A stretch of DNA of 64,000 nucleotides from a virus. A program made the translations under genes and the position numbers. The stretch is from positions 24,647-88,646 of IMG/VR virus record IMGVR_UViG_3300018080_000014; one strand, 5' to 3'. The notes under the pieces were generated by a model. That model made no database searches. It saw only the letters and a program-made list of their open reading frames with translations, and was not told the DNA's origin. Positions 24,969 to 62,738 of this stretch are shown one piece after another; positions within the stretch are counted from its first letter, which is position 1, and every line of letters begins with the position of its first letter.

Positions 24969-25075
24969 TTTCCGCGGTTCTAGCGAACGTACACGAGTGT
25001 TTTAGACATAGGCGTACAAGAGATTAAAGAGGAGCCTCTAAAACGTGCACCAGATGCATTTAGAGGCGCCCTGGC

Positions 25076-25150: not shown

Positions 25151-25197
25151 GTTCTAGCTCGCCCGTTTAACGAGGTCTCAGAATGACTGATCTCGGA

Positions 25198-40081: not shown

Positions 40082-40207
40082 GGAAGATCTGGACAAACTG
40101 GCCGAGAAAATGGACAAGATTATAGAGATCTTGGAGGAATTCAAGGATGCCCTTTATTGCGTGTATTATGGTGGAAGGCTTGGACCATTCGACGTGAGGG
40201 TGATGCA

Positions 40208-40444
40208 ATGAGGAAACTTGGAGAGATACTCGTGGACGAGCTGCACGGGCTGTTCGTCGTCTCGATCTTTGGCATCATTCTCGGGATCTCGGCCATCATC
40301 ATTTCCATCATGGTGGACAACGGGATCGCTCCCATCGAACGGTACACGGGTGTCATGGCAATAGCAGGAACCATACTGCTCGTGATTAGCGCGTGGATTT
40401 TCGTGGTATCGATACTGGAGACGAGGAAAAATGACCGAATCTAA
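40208..40444 (+). CDS. Small 2-TM membrane protein
   Basis: GGTGA SD; two hydrophobic helices. Confidence 0.55.
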   Translation: MRKLGEILVDELHGLFVVSIFGIILGISAIIISIMVDNGIAPIERYTGVMAIAGTILLVISAWIFVVSILETRKNDRI

Positions 40445-40976
40445 ACTAACATGGGCAAATTGCCCGATCCGACCCCGGCACGATAGCACGCTCGTCCTCG
40501 CCCCTATTCCCGATGACCCGGATCACCTGTTATTGGTGGCGGCAGCGTGGCCGCTCTACATTTTACCGTTCGGCGATCGCATAATAGACGTTGATGAATT
40601 AGATCAGTACGAGCAGGGGATGAAATGCCCGCCTAATTTAGCAGGGTACATGCGTGAGAAATTGAGCCGTCTTCAAATCATCGACGTCGCTCGAATGTCG
40701 TGCGACATTGCACGAATGCACGCACGATATGCTGCGGATGCTGCTGATTATGCGGCTGCTAATTATGCGGCTGATTATTCGGCTGATTATGCTGCCAGTG
40801 CGGCTGATTATGCTGCTCGTGCGGCTGGTGCGGCTGTTGATGCTGCTGCTAATGCTTATCATAATAGAGTTAGTAAACACGAGTTTACTATCACTCGTGG
40901 TAGTAAACACGAGTGCATGCAGCACATCGTCGATTATGCCGTACAAATGGTAAAAGGGGAGAGGACACGTGGCTAA
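40431..40976 (+). CDS. Protein with Ala/Asp/Tyr low-complexity repeat tract
   Basis: YAADAADYAAANYAADYSADYAASAADYAA; GCGGCTGATTAT-type repeats. Confidence 0.65.
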   Translation: MTESKLTWANCPIRPRHDSTLVLAPIPDDPDHLLLVAAAWPLYILPFGDRIIDVDELDQYEQGMKCPPNLAGYMREKLSRLQIIDVARMSCDIARMHARYAADAADYAAANYAADYSADYAASAADYAARAAGAAVDAAANAYHNRVSKHEFTITRGSKHECMQHIVDYAVQMVKGERTRG

Positions 40977-41262
40977 AAAATGGCACGTGGATAGATGGGT
41001 TCTGCCAGAATCATTGCCACGAACCCTTGAAAGATTGGAGAAAAATGGATACATATGCCTTGATTGTGGTCACAGGTTCAAGCATCCGTATATATTGAGC
41101 ATACCGGAGCATCACGGACCACCAGCAGAGTTCGATGCGTGTCCAAAATGCCATAGCACGGGTATATGGCGTGAAAAATTACCTACCAAGCCAATCGAGA
41201 ATGATGACCGGTTCGACCGCATGATAGCGGAGAAAGAAAGCAGGAAGGAGGCATGGGAATGA
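40969..41262 (+). CDS. Zn-ribbon protein
   Basis: CLDCGHRF...CPKCHS. Confidence 0.6.
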   Translation: MAKKWHVDRWVLPESLPRTLERLEKNGYICLDCGHRFKHPYILSIPEHHGPPAEFDACPKCHSTGIWREKLPTKPIENDDRFDRMIAEKESRKEAWE

Positions 41263-41356
41263 CCAAAAAGTCGTGGCAGGAAAACAGGTGCAGGAATGGA
41301 TTGTGGAAATCAATAATGCGAACTTTATTAAACATGGAATGGAGGCTTGCTGAAGA

Positions 41357-41677
41357 ATGGAAGACTACGAGATAGAAGCATGCTTCGACACGGACACCCA
41401 GATCCCGATAAAAACGAGACTGATGGTGCGTGCTGAAGGAATCGATAATGCCACCAATGCGGCATGGGTATTCGTGCTTGGACGCATCCACAACTTGAAG
41501 GATATTAATCCAGTCTTGATGTGGCTAACAGTACGTGGATACGTGATCGGAGAATATGATCCAAGAACAAATACACTAACACAATCATATCCAACATTCA
41601 AGGTATTTGAATGGAAACATGACCAACTTGGAGCGCAGGAAGAAATGGAACGATGGATCAAGGAAGCATTAAAATGA
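41357..41677 (+). CDS. Hypothetical protein, last gene of plus-strand block
   Basis: GGAGG upstream; converges with the minus-strand block. Confidence 0.55.
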   Translation: MEDYEIEACFDTDTQIPIKTRLMVRAEGIDNATNAAWVFVLGRIHNLKDINPVLMWLTVRGYVIGEYDPRTNTLTQSYPTFKVFEWKHDQLGAQEEMERWIKEALK

Positions 41678-41693: not shown

Positions 41694-42446
41694 TTAGGTC
41701 TCGTTAGAGGCCACCATTTTCCATAATTCCTGCATGCTCTTTTTGAAAATTAGGAACCACTTATCTTTTTCTTCTTCTGGTACTACTGGAAATTGTATTT
41801 CTACTTCTTGGAGGAATCTCCTTATTTTTGCTTTTACATCCACAGCGCCAACTGCATCCAACAATACGGGATCCATTCCAATATATGACCACCTGAAATG
41901 ATCGCACACGGTTCCCGGCTGTATTTTTAACACCTTGTGGCAATACGCACCTCCTTTTCCATCCGGATGTGGTTCCATGCAATTCGCACAACATCTCGCA
42001 GGCTTAAATCCGATATTCAGCATGGTATCATCAACATCGATGCGACGAGGGTCCTCGTCACACTTGCGGCAGATCCGACGCAGGACCGAATCCATCACAC
42101 GCATCCTCGTTTCATCGGCACGTTGCCCGCACCACTCACAGTACGTTGGTTCCACGCATTCCTCGAAGTCGGTTTCCATCTCGCGTAGCAACGCTGCCTC
42201 GTGCTCATGCCTCATCCTGTACCTGTCCGATTCATCAAGTCCTTCCATCACGGCAAGCTGCCAGTCGTTTGCCTTCTTCTTTCGTTTTTCCCACCCTTCT
42301 CGGGCCTTCGGAGGCTTTGGTTCGTGCATCAATTCAAGCGTAAACAGGCGGTGCGCCATGCCAGACATGGTTTCATCGAGCACCTTCCTTCGTTTTTCCA
42401 GATTCTTGTACATTTCTTCCGGAACATGTACACTAACCAATTTCAT
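41694..42446 (-). CDS. Ribbon-helix-helix N-terminus plus Zn-binding domains
   Basis: MKLVSVHVPEEMYKNL...TMSGMAHRL; CEWC/CRKC and CANC..C..C. Confidence 0.6.
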   Translation of the reverse strand: MKLVSVHVPEEMYKNLEKRRKVLDETMSGMAHRLFTLELMHEPKPPKAREGWEKRKKKANDWQLAVMEGLDESDRYRMRHEHEAALLREMETDFEECVEPTYCEWCGQRADETRMRVMDSVLRRICRKCDEDPRRIDVDDTMLNIGFKPARCCANCMEPHPDGKGGAYCHKVLKIQPGTVCDHFRWSYIGMDPVLLDAVGAVDVKAKIRRFLQEVEIQFPVVPEEEKDKWFLIFKKSMQELWKMVASNET

Positions 42447-47693: not shown

Positions 47694-49214
47694 ATGGAAA
47701 CAGAGGTAAGCGACATGGTAAGCAGGAAACTCTCTAAAGCAGATTTGGAGAAAATTAAACCATGGGCTGAAACCATGGTGGAACGATTCGAGCTGGATGA
47801 TGTCGAGGATGTCATGACAACCATCCAAGACAAGTACGAGGAGTTCTCCAAACGACCCAAGTTTGAAACAAAGCCCAAGGTATTCATCCTTAACAGGGCC
47901 AAATCTGCTGCCAATATAAAGTACACAGGAATTGGAAATCTTGAGCGCATGCTGGCCGTCTTCCTAGGACCCGGTGGTAGACCCAAAAATTGGACCGAGG
48001 AAGATTACAACAAGGTGCTCGAAGCTGCTGCGAAAGGAAGCCAAGCCGATGTGATGCAAATGGCCAAAGAAAGGAAGATAGCAAGCATCAAGGAGGCTCG
48101 TGGAGAAGGTGATAATGTCAGGGAAATACGCATCCCGGTGCGTAAGATTCTTGGCAATGGCAGGCTGGTAAAAACGAGTGCCAAGCCTGTCAACTTCGAG
48201 GTTCGGAAATGGCTTGACGAGGCCAAGACTGTACCGGGATACGAACTATGGACACCCGGTGATCCAGTGATACCTCTTGATACCGACAAGTACTTGTCTG
48301 CTGACAAGAAGAAACCAGTGGAAGAACGCAGGGAAAACTGGAACCACACGAACGTTCTCTTGCCAAATTGGGGCGTGACGATATATGCTCTAATATGGAG
48401 AGGAGATCAGGCAATGCCACATATCGCGCAAATAAAAGTGTACGGTGATGCCGCTGATCCAAACAACAAGGGAAACATAATTGATTACTTTGGATCCAGA
48501 GGCTTGTGGTTACATCCTGTACATTTCAAGGCGGAATTCAACGAGGACAAATCATCTGGCGAGCACTGGGAAATAAGGGTGACTCGTGACAAGTGGGCCG
48601 TGAAACCACTCAAGGGCAAGGAAATAGAGGAATTCGACATGTACGAGAAGGGATATGAGTGGGCATACGAGCCAGACTTCACCGGTGATCCATTTGATGG
48701 TGGCATTGCTGTCCCGACACAATGGGAAGGTGATCTCCCGCCACCATTTGGAATATGCGATCTTGAACATCTGCGTGAATGGCATGAGAAGATACAAACG
48801 ATCTATAATTCCAGTGGCGATGCCTATAAGAGTTATGATCGTGTTGGTATGATGGAATGCACTATCATGGCACAAGCGCAACCAGAAGACGGTAATTCGA
48901 TCAAAATATCCATCAAGGACAACTCTCTCCAGAAGACTCGTTTTTCAGCATTTCTCCCATCCATATTCTCGGAACTCCCTTTTGCAGGTGCCGCGGATGC
49001 ACTTATCTGGTTCACGAGCAAGAAGGGTAAGAAATGGAAAAACCCGGCAACCGGTGAATGGGAAGAAGACAAAACAGGCACGAAAGCAAGCATCAACATA
49101 GGCCTCATCAACATGCTCATCCTCATGGAACATGACGAAGGTGATGGAGAGGATGATGACGTGGAAGAAGTTGATGTAGTGGACGAGGACGCGGAGAACG
49201 AGGTGCGCGTGTAA
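47694..49214 (+). CDS. Putative ssDNA-binding protein with acidic tail
   Basis: Beta-rich, D/E-rich C-terminus, heads the replication operon; no diagnostic motif. Confidence 0.4.
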   Translation: METEVSDMVSRKLSKADLEKIKPWAETMVERFELDDVEDVMTTIQDKYEEFSKRPKFETKPKVFILNRAKSAANIKYTGIGNLERMLAVFLGPGGRPKNWTEEDYNKVLEAAAKGSQADVMQMAKERKIASIKEARGEGDNVREIRIPVRKILGNGRLVKTSAKPVNFEVRKWLDEAKTVPGYELWTPGDPVIPLDTDKYLSADKKKPVEERRENWNHTNVLLPNWGVTIYALIWRGDQAMPHIAQIKVYGDAADPNNKGNIIDYFGSRGLWLHPVHFKAEFNEDKSSGEHWEIRVTRDKWAVKPLKGKEIEEFDMYEKGYEWAYEPDFTGDPFDGGIAVPTQWEGDLPPPFGICDLEHLREWHEKIQTIYNSSGDAYKSYDRVGMMECTIMAQAQPEDGNSIKISIKDNSLQKTRFSAFLPSIFSELPFAGAADALIWFTSKKGKKWKNPATGEWEEDKTGTKASINIGLINMLILMEHDEGDGEDDDVEEVDVVDEDAENEVRV

Positions 49215-50398
49215 TGGGAAAAAGCGTGTTTGCGAGCGGGACCGCGCCAAGTACAAAGGCGAAAAACCCAGAGATGAATGCCAGTGAACAAGCATACGTA
49301 AACACACAAGTCATGACACGCCCCATAGAATTCCAGCCAATCACGGACGAGGAAGGAAACTATATCGATGCAGCGGAAGGTATTAACGTCACGTTCCGTG
49401 GCAAGCAGAAGTTTGGCAAGACGCTGAACGGGTTGCTATGGGGGTACTTCAACTCCGAGTACAAGAGCCAGCTGCGAGCGATGAACCTTGATCATGCCAT
49501 CGAGGTAATGGACCAAGGTGTACTTCCAGAAATAGAGTACATCATTGCCATAGATACCGAGTGTGATATAAAGGCGAATCTTCGACGTGGAAAGATGAAG
49601 CAATTGTGTGGGAAACTCCGCAAGAAGATCAAGCACGTGCCCACGCCACTTCAACGAAAAGTTGAAGGGATGAAGGATGGCAAGGCCGTGACGCTCAACG
49701 CATTGGAGATAGATGCTCAACGCCAGAACATAGAAGCTGCAATCTGGAAAGCCGTGGACACGTTCGGGGAAAACGTCATGATATTCTTCGATTCGGCAAG
49801 CGACTACAAGAAAGCACTTGATGATCTCTCCGACGTGGTGTTCAAGAAAACGGTGAAGACGAGCATGAGTCCTGCGAAAGGAAAGCAGGATACGGAGAAC
49901 GATCCATTCTGGCGTTCCTTTTACCAGTACCGCAACAAGTGGTGGCACAATTCGCTCATCAAGTTGAAATCGTTCCAAGGATGGTGCATCAGTACCATCA
50001 AGGAAGAGGATGTTGAAGAGGAATACCGCGTCGTGTTGGACAAGAACACGAAGAAACCAGTCCTCGATGAAAATGGCAATCAAATCTTCAAGCCTCCAAC
50101 GAAGACGCAGGAAGTAGCTCGCACGGCATTCAGGATCGACCAAGGATATTCCTTCCGCGACAGGTTCAACTTGGAAACAGGTGAGTACGAGCACTGCCTG
50201 AGATGGGACTGGGGAAAGTGGGAGCATCCCGGCGTGAAATCGTTTGACAGGATAGGCAACGACTGGAAACAGGAGCACAAGTGTTACGTGCCGTACCATT
50301 ACAACCACCGTCTCGCGATGATGGAAATCTTGAATGATCTCGGTCCTTCCATCTTAGGTGAATTGGAAGAAGGAAAAACTGATGATGATTTATGGTAA
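49214..50398 (+). CDS. RecA-fold/Sak4-like P-loop ATPase
   Basis: GKQKFGKT, IAIDTE, IFFDS. Confidence 0.65.
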   Translation: MGKSVFASGTAPSTKAKNPEMNASEQAYVNTQVMTRPIEFQPITDEEGNYIDAAEGINVTFRGKQKFGKTLNGLLWGYFNSEYKSQLRAMNLDHAIEVMDQGVLPEIEYIIAIDTECDIKANLRRGKMKQLCGKLRKKIKHVPTPLQRKVEGMKDGKAVTLNALEIDAQRQNIEAAIWKAVDTFGENVMIFFDSASDYKKALDDLSDVVFKKTVKTSMSPAKGKQDTENDPFWRSFYQYRNKWWHNSLIKLKSFQGWCISTIKEEDVEEEYRVVLDKNTKKPVLDENGNQIFKPPTKTQEVARTAFRIDQGYSFRDRFNLETGEYEHCLRWDWGKWEHPGVKSFDRIGNDWKQEHKCYVPYHYNHRLAMMEILNDLGPSILGELEEGKTDDDLW

Positions 50399-50604: not shown

Positions 50605-51522
50605 ATGCCACGGTTTAACACGGATAAGAATACGCTGGAAACCTTTGTCAATGCTATCAAGTGCGAAGGTATTACCAGCGTGGATAGTGACAAGGTAAAG
50701 AGCGGCACTCTCTTCAACGATTTTGTGCTCGACGTGAAGGAAGATGCCGTGTATTGTAATGCCACGGATACCAAGTCACACAAGGTAATAGCACAGCACG
50801 TGCTGAAAGACGTGGAGATAGTCGAAGAAGGTGAGATATACGTCACCGATACCGGAAACTTCGTCAAGGCAATGGACAGGTGTGGCGGTGGTAAAGGTGA
50901 CAGGATTTCAGTCTTGTATCCAGACGAGTACAACGGGATAACCATTCAGAGAATGGGGACAAAGACCGCGTTCTCCTTCCCGACGCAGGGAAAGAAGGAC
51001 GTGACGTCACTGGAAAGGACAACAAACATACCACATGTGTGGGACGACGAAGCAAAGAACGTGCTATCGACATCGGCAAAGAGCGGAAAAAGTTTTCACT
51101 GGCAGCACAAGCTTATAGCTGACCCGGATGACCTCGCGGAGATTGCCAAGGACATGAAGGATTTTGTCAAGCAAAAAGTGGTCACCATGACAATATCCAA
51201 TGGAGAAGTGCTGTTCAATCTTGGAAATATATCTTCCACGAAGAAAGGAAAGCGGCAACTATTCGCAAGCGTGAGACAGGAATTCAAGGATGGAAAATGG
51301 ATGCCAGCCGAGGAAGGTGCAGAAGACATAGTCAGCAACTACTACCACGGGTTCTACGCGGTGATACAGAACATACCATCAAAGCAGCCAATGGAACTAT
51401 ACTTTGGCAAGTTTGGAAATGGATACATGGTTTGGATCAGGAGCTTTAGCAGCAAGATGGATCTTCATTACTTGGTTCCCCACGACGCGGGGCTAGAACC
51501 AAAGAAAGAGACCAAGAGTTGA
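50605..51522 (+). CDS. Divergent PCNA-like sliding clamp
   Basis: Clamp-like pattern (LDVKEDAVYCNATD, EGEIYV...FVKAM...DRISV, second domain DLAEIAKDM...VTMTI); context of RFC and PolB. Confidence 0.7.
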   Translation: MPRFNTDKNTLETFVNAIKCEGITSVDSDKVKSGTLFNDFVLDVKEDAVYCNATDTKSHKVIAQHVLKDVEIVEEGEIYVTDTGNFVKAMDRCGGGKGDRISVLYPDEYNGITIQRMGTKTAFSFPTQGKKDVTSLERTTNIPHVWDDEAKNVLSTSAKSGKSFHWQHKLIADPDDLAEIAKDMKDFVKQKVVTMTISNGEVLFNLGNISSTKKGKRQLFASVRQEFKDGKWMPAEEGAEDIVSNYYHGFYAVIQNIPSKQPMELYFGKFGNGYMVWIRSFSSKMDLHYLVPHDAGLEPKKETKS

Positions 51523-52407: not shown

Positions 52408-52842
52408 GTGTACATGCGAACAATATGCCTATCAACATCGACAACGCTGGATCACGAGAAGATCCGGCCATTATACGAGAAAATCATTAGTGCCAATAGG
52501 AGGTGCGCGTTCTTCATTGACCGCACGAACCCCGTGCTCGAAGAAATGATAAAGAAATACAGGTGTCGCAAGATGCGGTTTCATCTCCAGCGAGCACTCA
52601 TGCGAGCTCGTGCAGCGTATGCTGATAGGGCAAAAAGAATCGTGGAGAAGGCCCAATCTTGTTATTGCGTGGTTGATAGCAAGGACAAGTATGCGGGACC
52701 AGTAGAAATAGCAGTGGAATTTATGGAAAGACATCCAGATCTCCACATAGAAATATATTTTGTTACTGGAGGAGAATGGAAACAGGTAACGATGCGAGAA
52801 GCGAGGAAAGGTACTCCATGGGATACGTTCCTATCCAAATAG
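52408..52842 (+). CDS. Possible SLOG/YspA-like Rossmannoid protein
   Basis: R...IVEKA..CYCVVDSK...GP pattern loosely matches the SLOG C-terminal motif. Confidence 0.35.
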   Translation: MYMRTICLSTSTTLDHEKIRPLYEKIISANRRCAFFIDRTNPVLEEMIKKYRCRKMRFHLQRALMRARAAYADRAKRIVEKAQSCYCVVDSKDKYAGPVEIAVEFMERHPDLHIEIYFVTGGEWKQVTMREARKGTPWDTFLSK

Positions 52843-55800
52843 AGAACGCCGATTACTCGGAAGAGATCGGCGAGGCAGTGCTACACATTACTGGATACGC
52901 CCGAGATGGGAGTAGGCACTATGTTGTCATACATGGAGAAGGCATCTATCCTTCTTTTGGTGTTCCATACGAGGAATTCTGGCTCATAAAGGATGACCCG
53001 AGGATAGTGGATTACTGGCGCGGACCTGATTCACCACTCGGTGAGCCCGTCATGGAAGTGAGGACGAAATTGCCAAGCGATATAGGAACGGGACAGGATG
53101 CGCTTCGCAATTACACGTCGCACTCGTACCAAGGGGACATCAAGTACTTCAAGAAATGCCTCACGCAGCTCGGGTTCTTTAACGGGTATTTCCAGTATGA
53201 TGATGCATACTTGGAGCATGATAAAATAGCATATCATCATCCCGCATTCAAGGTGCATGCGCATGTTCACACGGATCACGTCAAGCCATTACCAGATAGC
53301 GAGCGGTTCTTTGCCCAGAAAACAAAGGTGTACTGGGACACGGAATGGGACATGAGCGAGCTCAAGAACGAGTATGGTGAATTCAGGGGCTCGCAGCTGG
53401 ATAAAAACCATGATTGGAAACGTAGCAGGATGATAACCGTGGTATTTTATGAGTTTAAATACCAGAAATATGTCGCGTTTACATGGCATCCCCTGCTCAG
53501 GAAGGAAGTACACGACATGGAGGATTACATCAGCAGGATTGACGAGAAAATCCGCAACAAGATAAACATTCCTGAAAAATATACCAGTGAAGTAAACGGG
53601 TTCTTGGATGAAAGCACCATGTTCGATGCTATCATCGAGTACCTGCACGTGGTATCACCTGGATGCTTGCTTGGTTATAATTCGGCTGGTGGTATACATG
53701 GCAAGGGTGATGACAAGCACTGGATAAACGGGTTCGACATGCCGTATTTCTTTCTAAGGGCCGAGCATCTCAAGAAGCCAGTAAACAGGTTGAGCCCCAT
53801 GGGATCGGCGTACAAGCAATTCAGGAAAGGATGGGAGGAATTCTTCGTTAACATAAAGCTGGTGACGCAGTTCGATTTGTGGCATTCTGCCGAGTTTTTT
53901 GATATAACGTGGAAAGACTACTGGATAAAGAACAAGAAGCTTGACACGTTAATGTACAATTACTTGGGTATAGGGAAGGTAAAACATATAGGGCACGTAT
54001 GGGAACAGTGGCTGGAAGATCCATATCACGAGCGATATTATTGTACGGGTGATGTGGAGGGCACGTTCGCGCTGGATGTCATGTTTAACATGAGCGAGGA
54101 TGGATACAATAGGGCCATGATGTCTGGCACAGTGTGGGAAGATTACCAGTTCGCATCAAAGCTGCACGACCAAATCAACCTTCGCCTGTACAAGGACTTG
54201 TATTTCTTGGACACTAAGTGGCAAAAGGTAAGGGATATTGCCACGGGACACAAGATAAAAACGGAAGAACACGAGCATGGTATAAGGTGGAGACGTGACT
54301 GGATTACCAACCACATAGGAATAGAAGTGGAAAAGAAAGGTGGATACGTACCTGTACCAATCATAGGATTGCATGAAGGCGTCGTGGTGATAGACTTCAA
54401 CAAGTTCTATCCAAATTCCGCCATGGCTGCCAACTGTGGTCCAGAAACATTCGTTAACGTCAAGAAGCTCCGGTTCAAGAAGGCCGACACTGATATTTAT
54501 GGCGATGCAGAAGGTGTCAGGATACGCATTCCGAACATGGGAATAGAAGTGGTGGAACTTCGCCCCTTTCTCAGGCGGGAAATCGAGGATTGGGAGGAAG
54601 AAATGCGAAAGGCGCGTGCTGCCGTGGGGAATAACGTGTATGATCTCCACGAGTATTTCAAGAACGAGCTGATAGAATGGAAAGAAGTTGCGCATGATTG
54701 GAATGATTTGAACAGGACACCATCTGGATTCTTCTTGAAGACACCAACGGCAAAGAATACGATTGCTTTCGAGGAATTGCTGCGAAAGAGAAAGGAAATG
54801 CAGAAGCTTGCCAAGGATAGGCTTGCTGAGGTTGGTGATAAGAATGATTGGATGTACAAGGTATATGATTTACTCCAGTTTTCATTCAAGGGTCTAACCA
54901 ATGCGCGGTTTGGTATCACTGGAATGATGGCGGATAGGTTATACATGCTTCCAATATTTAATACGTTCACGCTTGTCGCACAAACACTTATCCGGGAATG
55001 CATACGATACATGGAAGAAGATCTTGAATATACCATTGTTGGTGGTGATACTGATAGTGTCTTTATCAAGCTCAAGAAGAAACTGGACCTGAAGCGTGAG
55101 GTTTTGGACAACGGGAGAGAAAGATGGTACTCCGTGGAAGCCGACACGTTGTGTAACATGCTAAACAAGCACGTGTGGGAGCATGCACAGCAGGAGTTCA
55201 ACTTCGACCGCAACACGTTCAACATGGACGTTGAAGATATTAGTGGATATTTTTATATCCATACTAAAAAGCACTACGTCAAGGCCGTGCTGGTTCGTGA
55301 AGGGGTGAAGTTCGATCACCCTGTTCTCATGTGGAAAGGATTGAAGCGTGTTAGCAGGTCAACATCACTCTGTACAGATGATATTCAAGATGCCTTGGGC
55401 GCAATAATCCTAAAGGGTGGCACGCTTGATGATGCCATACAATACATCATGAAGATACACGAGGAGTTCAATAACTACGAGCCAATGTACCTGTGCAAGG
55501 TATTGCCGTTGAAAAGACCACTTAGCAAGTACTCGAAAAACGGGGAAACGTGGAAAGCATACACGCTTGCTAACCAGTATTTCAATGCTGGATATGGCCT
55601 TGGAGCACGTGCGTTTATCGGCAGGCTTAAATATTGCCCGCCCAAGATAAAAGGGAGAAAAGTCAATCCTCAGCTTGGAGATGTCATAGCATTCGATGAG
55701 AGGATGTTGCCTGAAATAAAGGAAGCTGGATTGGTATTTGATTACGATGAATTGGAAGACAAGGCTGCTGCGGCAGCTGCGAATGAGTTACTCGCAAGAT

Positions 55801-55862
55801 TTGATACGTCATATTGGGATGTGCTGGAAGATGTCAGGACATACGACCCTTGGGAATTCTAA
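52776..55862 (+). CDS. polB: Family B DNA polymerase with 3'-5' exonuclease
   Basis: WDTE, GYN...FDMPY, YCTGDV; DFNKFYP, KGLTNARFG, GDTDS, KKHY. Confidence 0.95.
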   Translation: METGNDARSEERYSMGYVPIQIENADYSEEIGEAVLHITGYARDGSRHYVVIHGEGIYPSFGVPYEEFWLIKDDPRIVDYWRGPDSPLGEPVMEVRTKLPSDIGTGQDALRNYTSHSYQGDIKYFKKCLTQLGFFNGYFQYDDAYLEHDKIAYHHPAFKVHAHVHTDHVKPLPDSERFFAQKTKVYWDTEWDMSELKNEYGEFRGSQLDKNHDWKRSRMITVVFYEFKYQKYVAFTWHPLLRKEVHDMEDYISRIDEKIRNKINIPEKYTSEVNGFLDESTMFDAIIEYLHVVSPGCLLGYNSAGGIHGKGDDKHWINGFDMPYFFLRAEHLKKPVNRLSPMGSAYKQFRKGWEEFFVNIKLVTQFDLWHSAEFFDITWKDYWIKNKKLDTLMYNYLGIGKVKHIGHVWEQWLEDPYHERYYCTGDVEGTFALDVMFNMSEDGYNRAMMSGTVWEDYQFASKLHDQINLRLYKDLYFLDTKWQKVRDIATGHKIKTEEHEHGIRWRRDWITNHIGIEVEKKGGYVPVPIIGLHEGVVVIDFNKFYPNSAMAANCGPETFVNVKKLRFKKADTDIYGDAEGVRIRIPNMGIEVVELRPFLRREIEDWEEEMRKARAAVGNNVYDLHEYFKNELIEWKEVAHDWNDLNRTPSGFFLKTPTAKNTIAFEELLRKRKEMQKLAKDRLAEVGDKNDWMYKVYDLLQFSFKGLTNARFGITGMMADRLYMLPIFNTFTLVAQTLIRECIRYMEEDLEYTIVGGDTDSVFIKLKKKLDLKREVLDNGRERWYSVEADTLCNMLNKHVWEHAQQEFNFDRNTFNMDVEDISGYFYIHTKKHYVKAVLVREGVKFDHPVLMWKGLKRVSRSTSLCTDDIQDALGAIILKGGTLDDAIQYIMKIHEEFNNYEPMYLCKVLPLKRPLSKYSKNGETWKAYTLANQYFNAGYGLGARAFIGRLKYCPPKIKGRKVNPQLGDVIAFDERMLPEIKEAGLVFDYDELEDKAAAAAANELLARFDTSYWDVLEDVRTYDPWEF

Positions 55863-55865
55863 GAG

Positions 55866-56468
55866 GTGTACAAAATGCTACAAATGGAAGAACCTGATCC
55901 GGGAAGAATAACCGCGTTCGTGAGTGGTAGTTGGAAGGACAAGGACTTGGTATCAGAAGTCATCCAGTACCTGTGGGATAGAGGCATACATATAACACAT
56001 GACTGGACGAATGACAGGGACATGCTGTGGAGCAATATACAGGTAAGAGAAGCGATAAAGAAGGCAAAATATTTTGTACTCGTCAACGGGCCAGATCCAA
56101 CGCAAGGAAAGGCATGGGAGTGCGGCCTTGCTGATGCGTGGGAAATTCCAATCATCGTGCTCGGTGAGCCAATAACCAACAGCTTCTATTACAGGCCTGT
56201 AATACACGAGAAAATAGATAAGAATACGGATATTGGTGCAGTTGCCGCGGATTGCATCATAGCAGTCGATATGTTTATTTCCCTTAGTGGAATGAACCCC
56301 GGCGAGGCGCTTGAGTATGAATTGGTAAAGAAAGACCCGTACACGTGGAATCTGAAGCGCATGGAACGTGCAGTTGCTAACATGACAAAGGCAATGCTCA
56401 CGATAAATCCAGAAGGTGGGTTGCTCGGTGATCCAGACGGGTTCAAGGACAAAAAGTCCCCTACCTAA
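55866..56468 (+). CDS. Nucleoside 2-deoxyribosyltransferase-like protein
   Basis: FVSG.W, HDW, GKAWECGLA...IPIIVLG. Confidence 0.7.
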   Translation: MYKMLQMEEPDPGRITAFVSGSWKDKDLVSEVIQYLWDRGIHITHDWTNDRDMLWSNIQVREAIKKAKYFVLVNGPDPTQGKAWECGLADAWEIPIIVLGEPITNSFYYRPVIHEKIDKNTDIGAVAADCIIAVDMFISLSGMNPGEALEYELVKKDPYTWNLKRMERAVANMTKAMLTINPEGGLLGDPDGFKDKKSPT

Positions 56469-56527
56469 CTTCGCCGCTACCGGGTGTAATTGAACGATAA
56501 AATGCAGTTTTACGAGATGGGGACACG

Positions 56528-56869
56528 ATGCCACGAGACAAACAAGCAGGAAAAAAATACCTCCAAGACGACTCGACAAAAAAGCTCGGTTCGGTAGATA
56601 ATGTCGAACCACCTCCATGTATACCAGACTTAGCAGGAGTGCCCACTATAGATTGGAGAATATATGTGGATTGTCGAATAAGCAGGTTCGAGTCTGCCAT
56701 AGAATCAATAGCCACACTCTTGGGCAAAAATGCGCACAAGAAAGTAGCAGCAGTGGAAAGGTTGAAAGGAGAATGGCAAAGGGTCCAAGGAGAATACCAA
56801 GATCAAAAACGATACACGGCATTTGGAATGAAAGCGCTGAAATTGCTGGAGGTGCTATGGGATGATTAG
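56528..56869 (+). CDS. Hypothetical protein
   Basis: 113 aa, coupled to the next gene. Confidence 0.55.
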   Translation: MPRDKQAGKKYLQDDSTKKLGSVDNVEPPPCIPDLAGVPTIDWRIYVDCRISRFESAIESIATLLGKNAHKKVAAVERLKGEWQRVQGEYQDQKRYTAFGMKALKLLEVLWDD

Positions 56870-57551
56870 ATGCAGGTTTTGCGACAGGATAATGCGCAGC
56901 GTTTACGAGGACACCGATTCAATCTTGGCAATATGCGATACGCCGGGTTGTCAGAACAATCCAAGAACCAATTACAACAAGCAAGAGGAAGATAAAGGAT
57001 TCGTCAGGCTAACTGACCTGTACCCGCAAGGTCCAGAGGTTTCCCGTGATATTGGTGACAACGTGTTCTTGCTACGATTTTGCGACAGGATAATGCACAT
57101 GGGATTCGCAATGGAACCACAACACTGGGAAGATGCGCATGCACCAATTCTTCCCACATCTCGTGCCATGGAGGAGGCAACGAGAGCAATAGAAAGACGC
57201 ATCGAGGCAGATACCATCAATTGTATTGCTGGAGAGCGGTTCATCGATCCGCCTACCTGTGAACAATGTGATCCCGAGGTAGTGGAGGATGCGCATGATG
57301 ATCTTGTAGACGCACTCGAACATGCGCTGGTGACACCTAGGCAGGAAGAAATGCGTGAACGGGAAACAGAATCACGCAGGTTGCAACCAATGCACTTTTT
57401 CTCATGGAGCCTGTCGGCGCCAGCCATCCGCATGCACAATGGATCGAGGATTTGTATCATGGATTCGCAATACGATCCAAGTCCAGTACGTGGACACAGT
57501 GCAAGGGTTATCATGGATGATGAAGACGAGGAGGATGACGATGACGGGTGA
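56862..57551 (+). CDS. Mosaic protein: Zn ribbon + MCP-like segment + terminase-like motifs
   Basis: Segments align by eye with ORF 17221-17607, MCP ~99-153, and TerL nuclease and Walker B motifs. Confidence 0.7.
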   Translation: MIRCRFCDRIMRSVYEDTDSILAICDTPGCQNNPRTNYNKQEEDKGFVRLTDLYPQGPEVSRDIGDNVFLLRFCDRIMHMGFAMEPQHWEDAHAPILPTSRAMEEATRAIERRIEADTINCIAGERFIDPPTCEQCDPEVVEDAHDDLVDALEHALVTPRQEEMRERETESRRLQPMHFFSWSLSAPAIRMHNGSRICIMDSQYDPSPVRGHSARVIMDDEDEEDDDDG

Positions 57552-57804
57552 CGTGATACGCCTGATAGACCTGTACCCGGAGCTTGGTGATCTCCATGCA
57601 CACGATGACGAGATTATATGCTTCGTTTTCAATGGCAGGACCAAAAGGTTATCATTGGGTAATATCAGGATCTCGCTGTGGATTGGTAACGCCATGTGCC
57701 CTGTACACCACGTGACGTTCGATGACAGGAGGCAGCGTGGCGTGCTAGCGGTGAACGAGACGGAATATGGTCATAGAGGATGTGGATTCGTTGATCAATT
57801 ATAG
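57541..57804 (+). CDS. Hypothetical protein
   Basis: GGAGG SD; VIRLIDLYPE resembles FVRLTDLYPQ in the upstream gene. Confidence 0.5.
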   Translation: MTGDVIRLIDLYPELGDLHAHDDEIICFVFNGRTKRLSLGNIRISLWIGNAMCPVHHVTFDDRRQRGVLAVNETEYGHRGCGFVDQL

Positions 57805-58459
57805 CAGGAATAGCGGAAGGACAACCGCGGCGATGAACGATGCCATAGAAGTGGCAAACACTGGCACGAGGATACGATTCGTATGTTCCAGTACGAAGCA
57901 ATGCAGCTATGCGAGGAGCATGTTAAAACAGGCCGGTAGTGATCCGTTCTTGTCACCATGTGATCGTCCAGAATTTATAGAAATAATCACCGCTAACCAG
58001 CTTGACTATGAATGTAACGTATCTATCCGCCAAGGAATACGAACCATCCTCGATCACCACGTGTGGGAACTGATGGAAGATGGCAAGTTTAGATACCTGC
58101 ACGAGGAAATCATGAAGCATGGAGATTTTTTCGAGTTATTGCTACATCCCGTCGGGTCGCCATACGAGAACGATGCCGATCCAACCATGTGCAGGATGAC
58201 CGACGTGTACAAGGAAGAATGGGAAAAGGAAATAGAGAACGAGATAAGCGAGCTGCGAGTAGAGGATGGTCAGGAAGACATAATAGATGCGATCTCTGAC
58301 AAGTTTGGCATAGAAATATCCATGAACGATACAAACAAATCCGTTTTATCAAAAATGACACGAGTAATGGCATCAACAATGGAAAATTTGGAAATGGCAA
58401 TGAGAGAAATATTTAGAATGGAAAAGCGCATACACGAGTTGGAAAACGATGATAGTTGA
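57767..58459 (+). CDS. Degenerate terminase-ATPase-like domain plus coiled coil
   Basis: SRNSGRTTAA (Walker A with K to R), IRFVCSSTKQ, TILDH. Confidence 0.55.
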   Translation: MVIEDVDSLINYSRNSGRTTAAMNDAIEVANTGTRIRFVCSSTKQCSYARSMLKQAGSDPFLSPCDRPEFIEIITANQLDYECNVSIRQGIRTILDHHVWELMEDGKFRYLHEEIMKHGDFFELLLHPVGSPYENDADPTMCRMTDVYKEEWEKEIENEISELRVEDGQEDIIDAISDKFGIEISMNDTNKSVLSKMTRVMASTMENLEMAMREIFRMEKRIHELENDDS

Positions 58460-58715
58460 AATATTCAACTGGATAGCCTGCGTGATGGCAGTACTTGGTT
58501 CACTCACGCTGGCATGCAAGGCTGATAACATGCGAGGATGGATCATATATACAATAGCAGCAGTGGCAGGAATCATTTATTTTTCCATGACTGGAAACTG
58601 GCCACAGCTTGGAGTCTGGTGCATGTTCCTGTTCAACGACATCCTTGCCATGAGAAGGAAACTGCGAACAAGTAAAGATGATGACGCGCCACGAGTGATG
58701 TGGAAAAAATATTGA
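58449..58715 (+). CDS. Small 3-TM membrane protein (PnuC/SemiSWEET-like size)
   Basis: WIA...AVLG..L......GW pattern; three hydrophobic helices. Confidence 0.5.
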   Translation: MIVEIFNWIACVMAVLGSLTLACKADNMRGWIIYTIAAVAGIIYFSMTGNWPQLGVWCMFLFNDILAMRRKLRTSKDDDAPRVMWKKY

Positions 58716-59092
58716 ATGATATACAAAAGGATCTTGAAGATGCGTTCAAGAACATCAAGAATTTCGGTGATCTTGCCCCTTCAAATATATGGATGACCAA
58801 GAAAACGGCAACAATGATAAAGGAACACCGTGTACCTCCACACGTACCACGCATGGTGGATCATTACACGAGGCCTAGATTCATGCCGCGATGGAAGTGG
58901 TACTTCCTGAGATGGTTCGATGATTTCAAGCAAGAACTTGCCACGATGAAATGGAGACAAGGAGGCAAACCAAACCACGGCATTCTGTACATGCCCGGAT
59001 TCTTCATAAACAGCACGGTGGCGAGACTGCTGGAAACAGCATGCGAGCCCATGTACCACGGCCCGGGTGAAAGGAAGGGTAATGAAAAATGA
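58700..59092 (+). CDS. Protein with N-terminal MCP A-domain-like fragment
   Basis: DIQKDLEDA...FGD...KKTATMIKEHRV vs MCP DPFKDMDNA...LGD...TKTAKILKNHDV. Confidence 0.6.
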   Translation: MEKILNDIQKDLEDAFKNIKNFGDLAPSNIWMTKKTATMIKEHRVPPHVPRMVDHYTRPRFMPRWKWYFLRWFDDFKQELATMKWRQGGKPNHGILYMPGFFINSTVARLLETACEPMYHGPGERKGNEK

Positions 59093-59322
59093 TCAAGGAT
59101 AAATCCACGCACGAGCTGCTATACATTTTATCACAGAAGGGACATTGCTGGTACAACGAGACGAAATGCTACAGGATATTCAACGAGCTGGTAGATAGGA
59201 TTGATGATGATGAAAGAAGAAACCTGTCCGTGGCATTATCACACATGTACTCATGCGGGGAAGGACCAATGGAACTGATAGACATATGCAAGGAATTGAT
59301 GGAGAAGTACAAGGATGATTAG
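59089..59322 (+). CDS. Small helical hypothetical protein
   Basis: Coupled on both sides. Confidence 0.55.
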   Translation: MIKDKSTHELLYILSQKGHCWYNETKCYRIFNELVDRIDDDERRNLSVALSHMYSCGEGPMELIDICKELMEKYKDD

Positions 59323-60190
59323 AAGCCCGATAAAATGGTTTGGTGGAAAGAGCTGGCTGGTGGAGAAAATCATCAGCTACATACCACGAGAATGTGACGT
59401 GGTAATAGAAGCATTTGGTGGAGGAGCATGGCTGACGCTCAATCTTCCTCTTGGGCGGTTCAAGGTAATCATATGCAACGACATCAACGACCTGCTCATA
59501 AATTTCTGGATGGTCCTAAAGAATTCACACGCGGAACTGAAGGATGCTGCCATGCATGTACCAGATAGTGAGGTGGTATATGGGCATTTCGAGGACGTGA
59601 TAAACCATGGTGTACCGTACTTGGAAAAACTGGAAGATCCCGTGGAGATGGCACTGGCATTCTTTTACTTGAATACGCACAGTTATTCTGGCATACACAC
59701 GGGATTCCACGGGTTGAACTTTTCCACGCCTACGCAAAACCAACGAGCATACTTGTCAAAAATAGACCTATTCGAGGATATATGGTCCAGAATAAAATAC
59801 GTTACATTTAAAAACACTGACGTTATAGACCTGTTGAAGTCTGCTGATCGTGATAATGTTTTCATTTACTTGGACCCGCCATACTTCCAAGGTGGTGAAG
59901 TCTATGAATCCATCCATGGTGGCAAGCCGTGGGGCGAGGAAGATTTTTTCCGCCTGAGGGAAAGATTGTGGGAAATGGAGCATGCAAAAATACTCGTGTC
60001 CATCGATCAAGGAGAGTATTTCAAGAAGGAAGGGTGGCACATGGAGGAGATAGAGAAGACGAAAAAGCTGCGAGCAGAAGCAAAGATTGGAAGAGAAACG
60101 TTGGTGATGAATTACGAGCCTATTGGAATGGTTGAAAATGGAGAAAAAACACAGGCAGGAAGCACGGCAGCAGACCCGTGGTACTTCTAA
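59315..60190 (+). CDS. Dam-like (D12 class) N6-adenine DNA methyltransferase
   Basis: SPIKWFGGK, EAFGGG, NDIN..LINFW, YLDPPY; ends DPWYF. Confidence 0.9.
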   Translation: MIRSPIKWFGGKSWLVEKIISYIPRECDVVIEAFGGGAWLTLNLPLGRFKVIICNDINDLLINFWMVLKNSHAELKDAAMHVPDSEVVYGHFEDVINHGVPYLEKLEDPVEMALAFFYLNTHSYSGIHTGFHGLNFSTPTQNQRAYLSKIDLFEDIWSRIKYVTFKNTDVIDLLKSADRDNVFIYLDPPYFQGGEVYESIHGGKPWGEEDFFRLRERLWEMEHAKILVSIDQGEYFKKEGWHMEEIEKTKKLRAEAKIGRETLVMNYEPIGMVENGEKTQAGSTAADPWYF

Positions 60191-60464
60191 GAATTTGGTA
60201 CATGAGATAGACGAGGCAATAGACGAGTTCCGCGAGCAGCATTTCAGGCAACCGGAATTCCTGCTCTTGAATTACCGCACGGCATTTGTTGTCAAGAAGG
60301 AGATTGGCGAAAGGATGAAATACATCGTTGATGCCCGTAACAACCTTATTGGATCCACGTACAGGGGATTGGAGGTTTTTGAATGTGGAATGGACATACC
60401 GTTTATAGTTATTGGTGGTAATATTACAAAGTTACTGAGATATGCAAGAAGGGAATACATATGA
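60138..60464 (+). CDS. Stand-alone HK97 A-domain-like small protein
   Basis: EIDEAI...PEFLLLNYRTA...ERMKYIVD...YRGLEV vs MCP DMDNAV...QLFIGTKTA...ERIKYVRD. Confidence 0.55.
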   Translation: MEKKHRQEARQQTRGTSKNLVHEIDEAIDEFREQHFRQPEFLLLNYRTAFVVKKEIGERMKYIVDARNNLIGSTYRGLEVFECGMDIPFIVIGGNITKLLRYARREYI

Positions 60465-61741
60465 CAATACTACATGGCGACTGCTTCCAGTTGGTGAAAT
60501 CCGTACCCCATGAAACGTTCCACGCTATCGTCACGGACCCACCATACGGGATTGAATGGCTGAATAACGATTGGGATAAGCCAGACAAACTGTGGGATAA
60601 GCGGCAGACAGACTACCCTTCAGCACGCGGTACAGATGGTAAAGCCAACCTTAACGAATACGAAGCTGGAGAGAAGTTCTATTTTTGGTTTTCCCCTATT
60701 GCACGAGAAATGCAGCGGACACTAAAAACGGGAGGTAGTTGCTTTGTATTTTCATCCACGAGAACACTGCACCATCCGATGCGATGCTTGGAAGAGGCAG
60801 GATTTTTGATAAAGGATGTCCTGATGTGGAATTACCATACTGGATTTCCCAAGGCAATAAGTGTCCCCTTTCTTGTTGACAAGCGTGCGGGAATTGTTAG
60901 CACGAGTGACCCGAATGGACACACGGCTGTTTCCCAAGCGGCACAGGAACATGAAGGATGGGTGGTAGGTCGTGCCAAGCCAGCATGGGAACCAATTATA
61001 TGGGCGACAAAGCCATGTGATACAGCCATAGACTGCATGCTTGAAGACGGTATAGGTGGTATAAATGTTGGAGAAACGAGAATACCGGTGAACCCGGAGA
61101 TCGATGACATGAAACGCACGGTGATCCGCCAGCCACGCCATCCTGATAACGTGCTTAATTTCGATGACGCCGGTATCGGTGACAAGAAGGAGATGTTCAC
61201 CGGTGTCAGGGAGGAAGGTAGATTCCCGGCAAACGTGGTAGTGGTAAATGGTGAGATATTGGGAAAGCCGAAATTTAATATAATGTATGGCATACGGAAA
61301 GATGACCAAGTAATAGATATACCTAAACCGGACAGGAGCGAAAGGGACATGGGATTGGAAAACTGCTCCCACAACCCCATCTCGGGCGACGTGTGGGACA
61401 AGAAACTTGTATGCGCATCATGTGGAAAGAGTGTCAGGAAGCCGAAGACGACATGCGGATGTGGCAATCCTGTACTACAGTGGAAAAAATCGAAAAGAAA
61501 GGTGGTAAGGAATACCCATCCAACCGTGAAACCAATCGCGCTGTTCGAGCATCTTGTACGTCTCGTGACGAGAAGGGGGCAAGTTGTTGCCGATTTCTTT
61601 GAAGGATCTGGAACGTGTGCGATAGCATGCAAGAAAACTGGACGCGAGCACTGGGGAGCGGAACAGGATGAGGAGTACTACAACTTGGCCACGTCACGCG
61701 TGGCAAACCTATTCAATACATATGACCCGTGGGATTTTTGA
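60461..61741 (+). CDS. Beta-class amino-DNA methyltransferase with Zn-ribbon insert
   Basis: GDC, VTDPPY, GFPK, KPAWEPI, GRFPAN, HPTVKP, DFFEGSGT; ends DPWDF. Confidence 0.9.
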   Translation: MTILHGDCFQLVKSVPHETFHAIVTDPPYGIEWLNNDWDKPDKLWDKRQTDYPSARGTDGKANLNEYEAGEKFYFWFSPIAREMQRTLKTGGSCFVFSSTRTLHHPMRCLEEAGFLIKDVLMWNYHTGFPKAISVPFLVDKRAGIVSTSDPNGHTAVSQAAQEHEGWVVGRAKPAWEPIIWATKPCDTAIDCMLEDGIGGINVGETRIPVNPEIDDMKRTVIRQPRHPDNVLNFDDAGIGDKKEMFTGVREEGRFPANVVVVNGEILGKPKFNIMYGIRKDDQVIDIPKPDRSERDMGLENCSHNPISGDVWDKKLVCASCGKSVRKPKTTCGCGNPVLQWKKSKRKVVRNTHPTVKPIALFEHLVRLVTRRGQVVADFFEGSGTCAIACKKTGREHWGAEQDEEYYNLATSRVANLFNTYDPWDF

Positions 61742-62025
61742 TGACGAGGCACAGCAGGCAGAGAAACATGAAAATAGTAACCACGTATCTGGGCAAGCAG
61801 CATGTTAGAATGCTGGAATTGCTCGTGGAAGAAGGATATTACCTTAATAACAGCGATGCCATAAGGGCGGCGATAGATCTCCTGATAGACGTGAGACTTG
61901 GAACGTCCGAAAAACTGGCAGAAATTGAAAGCAAGATGAAAGATCTTGGCAAAATGAGCTACGATGAAAGACGTGCCAAGAGGCGTGGAGAAGTGTACGA
62001 CAAGGATGGGATGGTGATAACGTGA
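61741..62025 (+). CDS. Ribbon-helix-helix (CopG/Arc) regulator
   Basis: KIVTTYL...L..LVEEGYY.N.SDAIRAAI. Confidence 0.8.
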   Translation: MTRHSRQRNMKIVTTYLGKQHVRMLELLVEEGYYLNNSDAIRAAIDLLIDVRLGTSEKLAEIESKMKDLGKMSYDERRAKRRGEVYDKDGMVIT

Positions 62026-62738
62026 GAATATCAAAAGTCAGCAACCAAGGCATGGCAGAGTTCGATGATGGCATATCAGCGATAGTATTCTTCTGCGGAT
62101 GCGATCTCGATTGCCCGTTCTGCCATAACGACAAGCTGATAAAGCTGGAAGATTGCCCGAAAAATGATTACGAGGCATGGGAAGCGGCGGAACTCATAAA
62201 GCTTGACATGGTGGATTGGGTATCGCTCACCGGTGGAGAGGTGCTTGTACAATCAGATTTTGGAACCGTGCGAAACATGATCGAGTACGTGAAAAGCAAA
62301 GGCAAGAAAGTAAACATAGATACCAACGGATTCATACGCAACGGATCGCCAAAGTGGAAGAATCTAAAGTCTATTGCTGGCATGCTTGACTGCATAAGCG
62401 TGGATATAAAGATGCAGAAAGTACAAACGAACACGTACCTGAACATGCATACATGGCTTGATGGCTTGCGTGTTCGAGATAAAACAAGATTTCGCATGGT
62501 AGTGCTGGAAGAAGTATCGGATGTATATTTCGCGAATCATACCATGAAGTTTTTCAAGTATAATGGTATAAAACGAATTGAACTGCTTCCAAATTCCATG
62601 CTCGGGAGAGGTGTGCAATTTTCGCGAACATCGAAAGAATTACTTGGACAGATTGCCACGTTTTATTCCGACAATGGAATTTCTACAGGACCAACGGAAA
62701 GCTTAAATACGAGTAATCATACAGGAGCTCGAGGCTAA
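62022..62738 (+). CDS. Radical SAM protein, glycyl-radical activase (NrdG/PflA)-like
   Basis: GCDLDCPFCHN, LTGGE, IDTNG, SVDIK. Confidence 0.8.
   Translation: MRISKVSNQGMAEFDDGISAIVFFCGCDLDCPFCHNDKLIKLEDCPKNDYEAWEAAELIKLDMVDWVSLTGGEVLVQSDFGTVRNMIEYVKSKGKKVNIDTNGFIRNGSPKWKNLKSIAGMLDCISVDIKMQKVQTNTYLNMHTWLDGLRVRDKTRFRMVVLEEVSDVYFANHTMKFFKYNGIKRIELLPNSMLGRGVQFSRTSKELLGQIATFYSDNGISTGPTESLNTSNHTGARG

Follow-up and report, generated by a model that had tools for sequence, protein, structure and literature searches.

The stretch of DNA analysed here, referred to as the window, comprises 64,000 nucleotides (bases 24647-88646) of the 88,646-bp IMG/VR virus record IMGVR_UViG_3300018080_000014, and all coordinates below are window positions. 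The record, which has a direct terminal repeat of 123 bp, belongs to an uncultured 88.6-kb tailed double-stranded DNA virus, whose minus strand carries the virion genes and whose plus strand carries genes for replication and DNA modification. The subject of this analysis is one plus-strand open reading frame (ORF) of 229 codons, the target ORF, which lies downstream of the gene for the family-B polymerase (polB). Two of its segments resemble proteins encoded in the virion gene block of the same genome, namely the zinc-ribbon protein ORF128 and the major capsid protein (MCP), and we are fairly confident that it represents a lineage-specific chimeric accessory gene, predicted to be translated, with two self-derived modules. 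The features that bear on this view are the following:

56848-56854, plus strand: GGAGGTG, a Shine-Dalgarno-like motif read from the sequence, 7 nt before the ATG of the target ORF
56862-57551, plus strand: target ORF, 229 amino acids, isoelectric point 4.56, nine cysteines
56865-56960, plus strand: amino acids 2-33 of the target, a four-cysteine zinc ribbon (CxxC-17-CxxxxC) paralogous to ORF128
56877-56895, plus strand: copy 1 of a 19-nt repeat, coding for FCDRIM
57075-57233, plus strand: amino acids 72-124 of the target, a diverged copy of MCP amino acids 95-153
57078-57096, plus strand: second copy of this repeat, bordering the MCP-like segment on its N-terminal side
57516-57548, plus strand: acidic C-terminal tail DDEDEEDDDDG of the target
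14413-14589, minus strand: amino acids 95-153 of the MCP, the parental or paralogous segment
17317-17412, minus strand: amino acids 66-97 of ORF128 (17221-17607), the nearest zinc-ribbon paralogue; its gene is situated in the head block, with the portal gene on one side and the MCP gene on the other

Coding evidence and the two paralogous segments

Judged by its sequence, the target ORF is a real gene and looks coding. It shares 8 nt at its start with the end of an upstream 113-amino-acid ORF and 11 nt at its end with the start of a downstream 87-amino-acid ORF. In a codon-usage model trained on 21 long genes of the genome (log-likelihood per codon), the annotated frame scored +0.21/+0.15, against -0.15/0.00 for an antisense ORF of 209 amino acids, and the shifted frames also scored below the annotated one. 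The C-terminal part of the predicted protein (amino acids 131-229) is strongly acidic, with 26 aspartates and glutamates versus 9 lysines and arginines. The target ORF and the Dam-like methyltransferase gene (59315) open with the same nine bases, ATGATTAGA (MIR), which is probably trivial.

All-against-all phmmer comparison of the genome, with self-matches of the terminal repeat set aside, placed two pairs that involve the target among the three strongest; one ORF thus holds two paralogies, each with a different gene of the virion block. Both parental genes are intact in the same genome, and Smith-Waterman comparison segment by segment showed that the ribbon matches only ORF128 and the middle segment only the MCP. 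An earlier note on this DNA had described the target as a concatenation of four late-gene motifs; the ribbon and the MCP-like segment were borne out, whereas the two motifs ascribed to the large terminase (TerL) are at chance level, as detailed below.

The ribbon aligns to ORF128 without gaps, with 15 of 32 residues identical, including all four cysteines (pairwise BLASTP E 3e-7; phmmer E 2-4e-5 when every six-frame ORF of the genome was searched). The Smith-Waterman score is 82, compared with 30±5 for shuffled sequences, and none of 500 shuffles was as good, so that the match to ORF 17221-17607 proposed in the earlier note stands. When the ORF128 type is written as a pattern (CxxC-17-CxxxxC, CRFC...CDTxGCxNN), the target shows the four-cysteine spacing as well as the flanking identities. 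A relative of the virus, G001 (70,984 bp), encodes an ORF128 homologue at the syntenic place with the motif kept, and the target ribbon matches this protein too (E 1e-3). The label "late-gene motif" does not fit the ribbon specifically: 17 ORFs of the genome, from its early as well as its late regions, contain 18 CxxC...C matches in total, several of which share a CxxCG...D...L...CxxC type. Such ribbons are thus a widespread module in this virus and do not mark late genes, with the ORF128 copy still by far the closest. In the ESM Atlas, the clusters nearest to ORF128 consist of generic proteins of viral or zinc-ribbon type. The genome is unusually rich in small zinc-ribbon ORFs (for example 27626-27787, 29513-29854, 41694-42446, and 16962-17237), and the strongest paralogy within the genome is the zinc-finger pair 29513-29854 and 27626-27787 (phmmer 2.4e-6).

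The second segment matches MCP amino acids 95-153, again as the earlier note had claimed, with 22 of 59 alignment columns identical (pairwise E 7e-9), a Smith-Waterman score of 88 against 31±5 for shuffled sequences (none of 500 as good), and a phmmer E of 8e-5 to 1.4e-4 genome-wide. Profile methods agree: hhalign of the target against a 16-member MCP alignment gave a probability of 91% (E 1e-6), and a hidden Markov model (HMM) of the MCP family, run against 1015 six-frame ORFs of at least 45 amino acids, found the target at E 0.0042 over profile positions 97-153. The middle of the target also matches the MCP of G001 (E 5e-3), and comparison with this relative showed that the ribbon and the MCP-like segment both resemble conserved features of their parental families. 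The rest of the MCP fold is absent, since the segment corresponds to 53 of about 376 residues; no profile match over the whole fold was found, nor any similarity of the target to the N-terminal MCP part, the scaffold, or the portal.

MCP amino acids 95-153 belong to the most conserved stretches of the family. Within them, the target retains G104, F105, M107, P109, M128, T132, I139, E140, R141, R142, E144, N149, and G153, and has lost the invariant residues W96, T101, E111, L113, F116, G123, L131, L145, L147, and Y150. It also has lineage-specific residues of the MCP in common, namely M103 (found in 2 of 16 family members), A106 (5 of 16), and A117 (1 of 16). It scores 88 against its own MCP, 85 against that of the closest relative, and 51-74 against the other 14; together with the shared lineage-specific residues, this best score against its own MCP argues against capture from a distant virus. 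An AlphaFold2 model of the MCP (16 sequences, mean predicted local distance difference test (pLDDT) 44) contains short helices at 109-120 and a 26-residue helix at 126-151, which may correspond to the "spine helix" of HK97. The target modelled alone reached a pLDDT of 39.5, which, like the MCP model, is too poor for mapping the segments or for a fold search.

The codon-position pattern points to constraint on the encoded peptides. In the MCP-like segment, codon positions 1, 2, and 3 are identical to the parental gene in 29, 34, and 14 of 53 codons, and in the ribbon in 19, 20, and 9 of 32. Positions 1 and 2 (55-64% identical) thus differ from position 3, which is at random level, with Fisher p values of 1e-4 for the MCP-like segment and 0.004 for the ribbon. 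The same codon is used for just 9 of the 22 identical residues of the MCP-like segment, three of them methionines, and the peptide MGFAMEP, singled out in the earlier note as identical in both proteins, is encoded with three synonymous differences in 21 nt. Since the first two positions are conserved while the third is random, the peptide appears to be kept under coding constraint and not to be decaying debris: neutral decay that randomised third positions would have erased positions 1 and 2 as well, which it did not. The protein-level selection that the earlier note had read from the synonymous differences is thereby supported, and the pattern suggests that selection keeps the capsid-like peptide itself.

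A 19-nt repeat occurs in both segments. The window contains precisely two exact copies of TTTTGCGACAGGATAATGC, which start 201 nt apart and share one frame; two matches were not seen in any of 100 shuffles. Of the exact direct repeats that fit within 800 nt anywhere in the genome, it is the longest. Exact repeats of at least 10 nt number five in the 800-nt interval around the target, compared with a genome mean of 0.9, in keeping with the proposal that the internal duplication is a recombination-type trace. Copy 1 lies within the first knuckle of the ribbon, where CRFC...M is common to ORF128, and at copy 2 the agreement with the MCP is limited to an arginine and a conservative Ile/Leu pair; copy 2 therefore looks copied from copy 1. 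A decayed tandem duplication of a 201-nt unit was rejected, as the two 67-codon units share only the seven repeated residues. A further exact repeat of 12 nt (57015/57568) connects VRLTDLYPQ of the target with IRLIDLYPE of the next ORF, and this 87-amino-acid ORF (57541-57804, plus strand), which has the pattern RL[TI]DLYP in common with amino acids 48-56 of the target, contains an AHDD motif as well. Elsewhere in the window, the regions at about 40155-41550 and 23755-25950 are richer in short direct repeats, with up to eight of at least 10 nt per 800 nt, the longest measuring 16-18 nt.

Searches of family and structure collections gave no assignment for the target. It had no match among PDB sequences at E up to 10 and none to a family of Pfam, PHROGs, PADLOC, or NCBIfam, of which PADLOC and NCBIfam cover defence and housekeeping and not anti-defence functions. 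The ESM Atlas was uninformative, with feature scores of at most 0.78 and TM (template-modelling) scores of at most 0.32. The relative G001 contains no homologue of the target, and a search of G001 with the MCP alignment reported only the MCP itself.

The polB-methyltransferase island and further MCP-like ORFs

The genes that frame the target and its relatives within the genome are listed here, together with two further ORFs that contain weaker MCP-like segments:

13741-14871, minus strand: MCP, phrog_1005 at 2.8e-9 and phrog_29 at 7e-5
18228-19718, minus strand: portal, Portal_Mu, E 7.6e-6
19715-21544, minus strand: TerL, Terminase_6N, E 4e-9
52776-55862, plus strand: family-B polymerase (polB), 1028 amino acids
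55866-59322, plus strand: hypervariable accessory island with eight ORFs between polB and the Dam-like methyltransferase gene, including the target
58724-58840, plus strand: amino acids 9-47 of ORF 58700-59092, a weaker MCP-like segment (MCP amino acids 195-233)
59315-60190, plus strand: D12-class (Dam-like) methyltransferase
60189-60407, plus strand: amino acids 23-95 of ORF 60123/60138-60464, a weaker MCP-like segment (MCP amino acids 192-265)
60461-61741, plus strand: N6_N4 methyltransferase
62022-62738, plus strand: radical-SAM protein

The MCP belongs to a lambda gpE-like, HK97-type family and matched PDB entry 3bjq weakly. The polymerase is at most 24% identical to entries of the phage collection, which places the virus far from everything in that collection, and relatives of its MCP (56-84% identity) are confined to metagenomes. 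Scans of IMG/VR with the single MCP or polB protein found nothing; a scan with the MCP alignment found one record, and a metagenome scan with the polB alignment found 14 loci. The closest relative is a 94,616-nt JGI contig, whose MCP and polB are 84% and 59% identical to those of the window. In a search of genome contigs, polB gave no match and the MCP gave one, a contig from a Thermoplasmata metagenome-assembled genome. This contig, L022 (MUGE01000025.1, 9520 nt), which was binned with "Thermoplasmata archaeon M11B2D", encodes an MCP 61% identical to that of the window; this binning is the sole, and weak, hint of an archaeal host.

Five related metagenome loci have the three genes that precede polB (47694-49214, 49214-50398, and 50605-51522), polB itself, and the Dam-like methyltransferase gene in the same order as the window. 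The gap between polB and the methyltransferase gene measures 3.45 kb here versus about 0.6-1.6 kb in these five relatives, and seven island ORFs used as tblastn queries (all except the 88-amino-acid ORF 58449-58715) gave no match with E < 0.1 in their loci. The first ORF after polB (55866-56468, plus strand, 200 amino acids) is TIR/ThsB-like (PADLOC PDLC00436, E 1.3e-7; Pfam TIR_2 at 3.5e-4, below the cut-off) and likewise has no counterpart in the polB-methyltransferase gaps of the relatives. A virus-borne TIR domain may bear on immune signalling.

The two further ORFs were found with the same MCP profile. ORF 58700-59092 reached E 0.006 with the HMM (MCP 192-230), an hhalign probability of 58% (E 1e-4), and a Smith-Waterman z of 4.5 against the MCP, with 1 of 200 shuffles as good. 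ORF 60123-60464 reached E 0.19 (MCP 194-254), 70% (E 4e-5), and z 4.5, with 0 of 200 shuffles as good. A homologue of the latter ORF, counted from 60138, lies beside the radical-SAM gene of the relative L008 (14238-14474), and its addition leaves the hhalign probability at 70%. The target and these two ORFs are the three best non-self hits of the MCP HMM among the 1015 ORFs, the next having E 1.5. Across 20 shuffled databases, E stayed at or above 0.6 for the second-best hit and at or above 1.3 for the third-best; the lowest E with reversed sequences was 2.1, and a control HMM of polB reached 0.05. All three hits lie within 3.1 kb, a proximity reached by a random ORF triple in 748 of 200,000 draws. 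That MCP-like segments form a theme of the replication gene string is plausible but not proven, the two additional matches being individually weak. A decayed second MCP gene spread across the island was rejected, because distances of 1.5-1.3 kb separate the three pieces, two of which correspond to one and the same MCP region, and a methyltransferase gene intervenes; ORF 57767-58459 was rejected as a further MCP mimic (hhalign 0.2%).

Relatives encode a conserved protein of about 200 amino acids immediately before polB (L009 5718-6329, L010 5580-6320, L013 93-818, L015 5619-6254), which has an N-terminal CxxC...H...H knuckle and a conserved C-terminal domain and for which the window has no clear homologue. 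In L009 and L010, the variable middle of this protein contains an MCP-like motif of the ERLKYV type (E 0.009 among 1461 ORFs), which we regard as a lead only.

Interpretation of the target ORF

We tentatively favour the reading, with a probability of about 0.45, that the target is a chimeric accessory gene whose product acts as a soluble mimic of an MCP segment and whose parts were joined by short-homology recombination. As to its composition, which is well supported, the gene combines an ORF128-like ribbon, a diverged copy of MCP amino acids 95-153, and a strongly acidic C-terminal half that is unique to it; recombination between short homologies, of which the 19-nt repeat would be a trace, probably joined these parts. 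The gene lies outside the head-gene module, about 40-42 kb from the head genes, on the opposite strand and downstream of polB. It is part of a co-directional replication string (polB, the TIR-like gene, ORFans, two methyltransferase genes, and the radical-SAM gene), and because of this place its product is presumably made with the replication proteins, separately from the virion proteins encoded on the opposite strand. The MCP-like helix-loop-helix segment would be presented in soluble form and could compete with unassembled MCP for one of its partners, which may be a host factor, sensor, or chaperone or a viral assembly factor, while the zinc ribbon and the acidic tail might supply a second contact. 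Presumed expression with the replication string, the immunity-related genes of the island (TIR-like and two methyltransferases), and an MCP-like peptide that is apparently kept by selection together make this the simplest working model.

Several findings weigh against mimicry of the capsid protein. The MCP-like piece is short and diverged (53 residues, 37% identity), and its identities are not significantly enriched at conserved sites, with 15 of 29 at positions conserved in at least 90% of the family versus 7 of 24 at variable positions (p 0.16). The segment may be buried in the folded MCP, and neither AlphaFold2 model is good enough to tell. Only the target itself was found in a clustered protein search covering 5.8 billion sequences and among 1.84 billion representative proteins, and neither tblastn against 50,697 phage records nor a pattern scan of IMG/VR gave a match to it; with no homologue found, conservation and the ratio of nonsynonymous to synonymous substitution of the whole gene are not measurable. 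The codon score of the target is lower than the mean of the core genes (0.30/0.28) and resembles that of other small ORFs. The ERLKYV motif of the relatives occurs in just two of the four full-length pre-polB proteins, so that conservation across lineages is weak.

An extended form of this proposal, in which at least three small proteins (56862, 58700, and 60138), encoded in the replication string and made apart from the virion genes, each carry a different conserved piece of the MCP and serve as soluble self-mimics that blunt host recognition of unassembled MCP, seems unlikely to us. If it were true, it could point to a general, hitherto undescribed counter-defence strategy spanning bacterial and archaeal viruses.

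Among the alternatives, we consider it less probable, if still a serious contender, that the target is a young patchwork ORF or proto-gene, in which illegitimate or short-homology recombination joined scraps of a zinc-ribbon gene and of an MCP gene, the product is at most tolerated, and the resemblance marks only the raw material, with no function related to the MCP. Such an origin would agree with the orphan status of the target in every search run, with island content that is not common to the relatives, with the repeat-rich ORF and its longest short-range exact repeat of the genome, and with the low codon score and the lack of significant enrichment of MCP-invariant residues among the identities. 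Gene birth by fusion of distant gene fragments is reported in bacteria (PMC12803068). The patchwork reading is harder to reconcile with the codon-position pattern, as neutral decay would have randomised positions 1 and 2 along with position 3, and with 229 open codons that are preceded by a Shine-Dalgarno-like motif, coupled to their neighbours at start and stop, and better scored than the antisense and shifted frames. Moreover, a donor MCP divergent enough to account for 37% identity would not be expected to share M103, A106, and A117.

The product might instead be an accessory protein targeted to the virion, with its modules as tickets into the assembling head. From there it would enter the next cell along with the viral DNA, perhaps in the role of an acidic anti-restriction protein, or it would modulate assembly from inside. 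Internal proteins of phage T4, which carry a capsid-targeting sequence, provide a precedent, as does CpmB of Staphylococcus aureus pathogenicity islands, whose C-terminus is also that of the helper-phage scaffold; both paralogous modules derive from genes of the head block, and the tail is acidic. We nevertheless regard this as improbable, given that the gene sits in the replication string, on the strand opposite to the head genes and about 40-42 kb away from them, and that no similarity to the N-terminal MCP part or the scaffold was found. In addition, ORF128 is at most a candidate virion protein, and its nearest Atlas clusters are generic zinc-ribbon proteins.

The earlier note had gone further and joined the ribbon and the MCP-like segment with two TerL motifs, which could make the target a concatemer of late-gene epitopes (head protein, MCP, TerL nuclease, and TerL Walker B) serving to decoy Avs-type sensors. 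Two of these four motifs are real, and the strings AHDDRVIA and VRGRSLHLGLVDE, which AHDDLVDAL of the target and its supposed motif II/Walker B were said to resemble, do exist in TerL. When the C-terminal half is aligned locally with TerL, the top alignment falls on the AHDD motif, and the neighbouring 87-amino-acid ORF, which also has AHDD, gave z 2.8 against TerL (3 of 200 shuffles as good, uncorrected and one of 72 tests). The similarity itself, however, is at chance: the best BLASTP match of the target to TerL had E 2.1, and the best Smith-Waterman score of its C-terminal part was 33, with 128 of 500 shuffles as good (249 of 500 for the whole protein). The Walker B and nuclease aspartate motifs that would identify a large terminase are thus not embedded in above-chance similarity in the target, and the link to terminase-sensing Avs proteins falls with them. 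Furthermore, Avs1-3 sense the folds of terminase and portal, not short linear motifs, and the target has no portal match. Non-terminase activators of Avs2 are reported to share the fold of the whole ATPase domain, and the TerL paralogue vs.8 of T4 acted as an activator, not an inhibitor (PMC13601566). We therefore disfavour the decoy and consider it very improbable.

Chance similarity or a chimeric assembly, suggested by short segments in a metagenome-derived genome, has an almost negligible probability, because none of 500 shuffles equalled either score, the profile-level matches agree, and the reads assemble through the locus. Run X1 probably represents the source sample, and its Logan assembly contains a single 88,553-nt contig that spans 55800-60600 with 0 differences, no joints, and a depth of about 22. 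Runs X2 (sediment) and X3 ("seawater") yielded short low-depth contigs over the same interval that are identical to the window and include parts of the target; the equal sizes of their pieces suggest one data set filed twice, the other possibility being that the same virus occurs elsewhere. The contigs of the three runs contain no joint or deletion variant between the 19-nt repeats, with the limit that contigs drop rare forms and some X2/X3 bins are uncovered. Nothing in them points to a chimeric assembly, the check that the earlier note had called for, and they offer no sequence variation for population tests.

Chimeric orphan genes are common in viral accessory regions, and their parentage is rarely readable; here, both parents are present in the genome, and one of them is the capsid protein. 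Should the capsid pieces prove to be mimics, either of what triggers immunity or of an interface used in assembly, they would define a new class of viral accessory function, and MCP-binding host factors of uncultured archaea could be sought with their help. Should they instead represent no more than raw material from which a gene was born, the target would be a clean example of viral ORFans assembled from fragments of core genes.

Comparison with known systems

The soluble-mimic reading has partial parallels in systems that exploit or sense capsid proteins. CpmB of Staphylococcus aureus pathogenicity islands (SaPIs) and the scaffolding protein of phage 80alpha have in common a C-terminal segment through which they compete for the capsid protein. 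Like the target, CpmB is a small accessory protein in which a short stretch is homologous to a protein of virion structure or assembly, and it acts through the binding site of that protein, as the target would; it differs in being a scaffold mimic encoded by a satellite, whereas the target copies the MCP of its own virus and its binding is putative. On the side of the host, the Lit protease recognises the Gol peptide of T4 gp23. CapRel-SJ46 shows that unassembled MCP can trigger a bacterial defence (PMC13728456). In these MCP-sensing defences, the MCP or a short MCP peptide is recognised in unassembled form, as the mimic reading needs; both are bacterial systems, and they have no known counterpart in the presumed archaeal host of this virus. 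Our literature search found no description of an MCP-fragment decoy or of a phage-encoded MCP-fragment inhibitor of MCP-sensing defences, and no precedent for dominant-negative capsid fragments in superinfection exclusion.

Phage T4 offers a parallel for a non-structural gene homologous to a virion or packaging protein of the same virus. The vs.8 protein, a paralogue of the TerL ATPase domain, resembles the target in this respect as well as in its restriction to one phage lineage, and it is discussed in connection with immune sensing (PMC13601566). The vs.8 protein keeps a whole domain, in contrast to the target, which keeps a 53-residue MCP segment fused to a zinc ribbon (PMC13601566).

With regard to its origin, the target is comparable to "deletion-born fusions", which are likewise reported to consist of two unrelated parental segments in a new ORF with a short direct repeat at a junction, a feature that is putative in the target (PMC12803068). 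The fusions treated there are found on bacterial chromosomes (PMC12803068), whereas the parents of the target are both intact in the same viral genome and its copies are so old that their synonymous sites are saturated.

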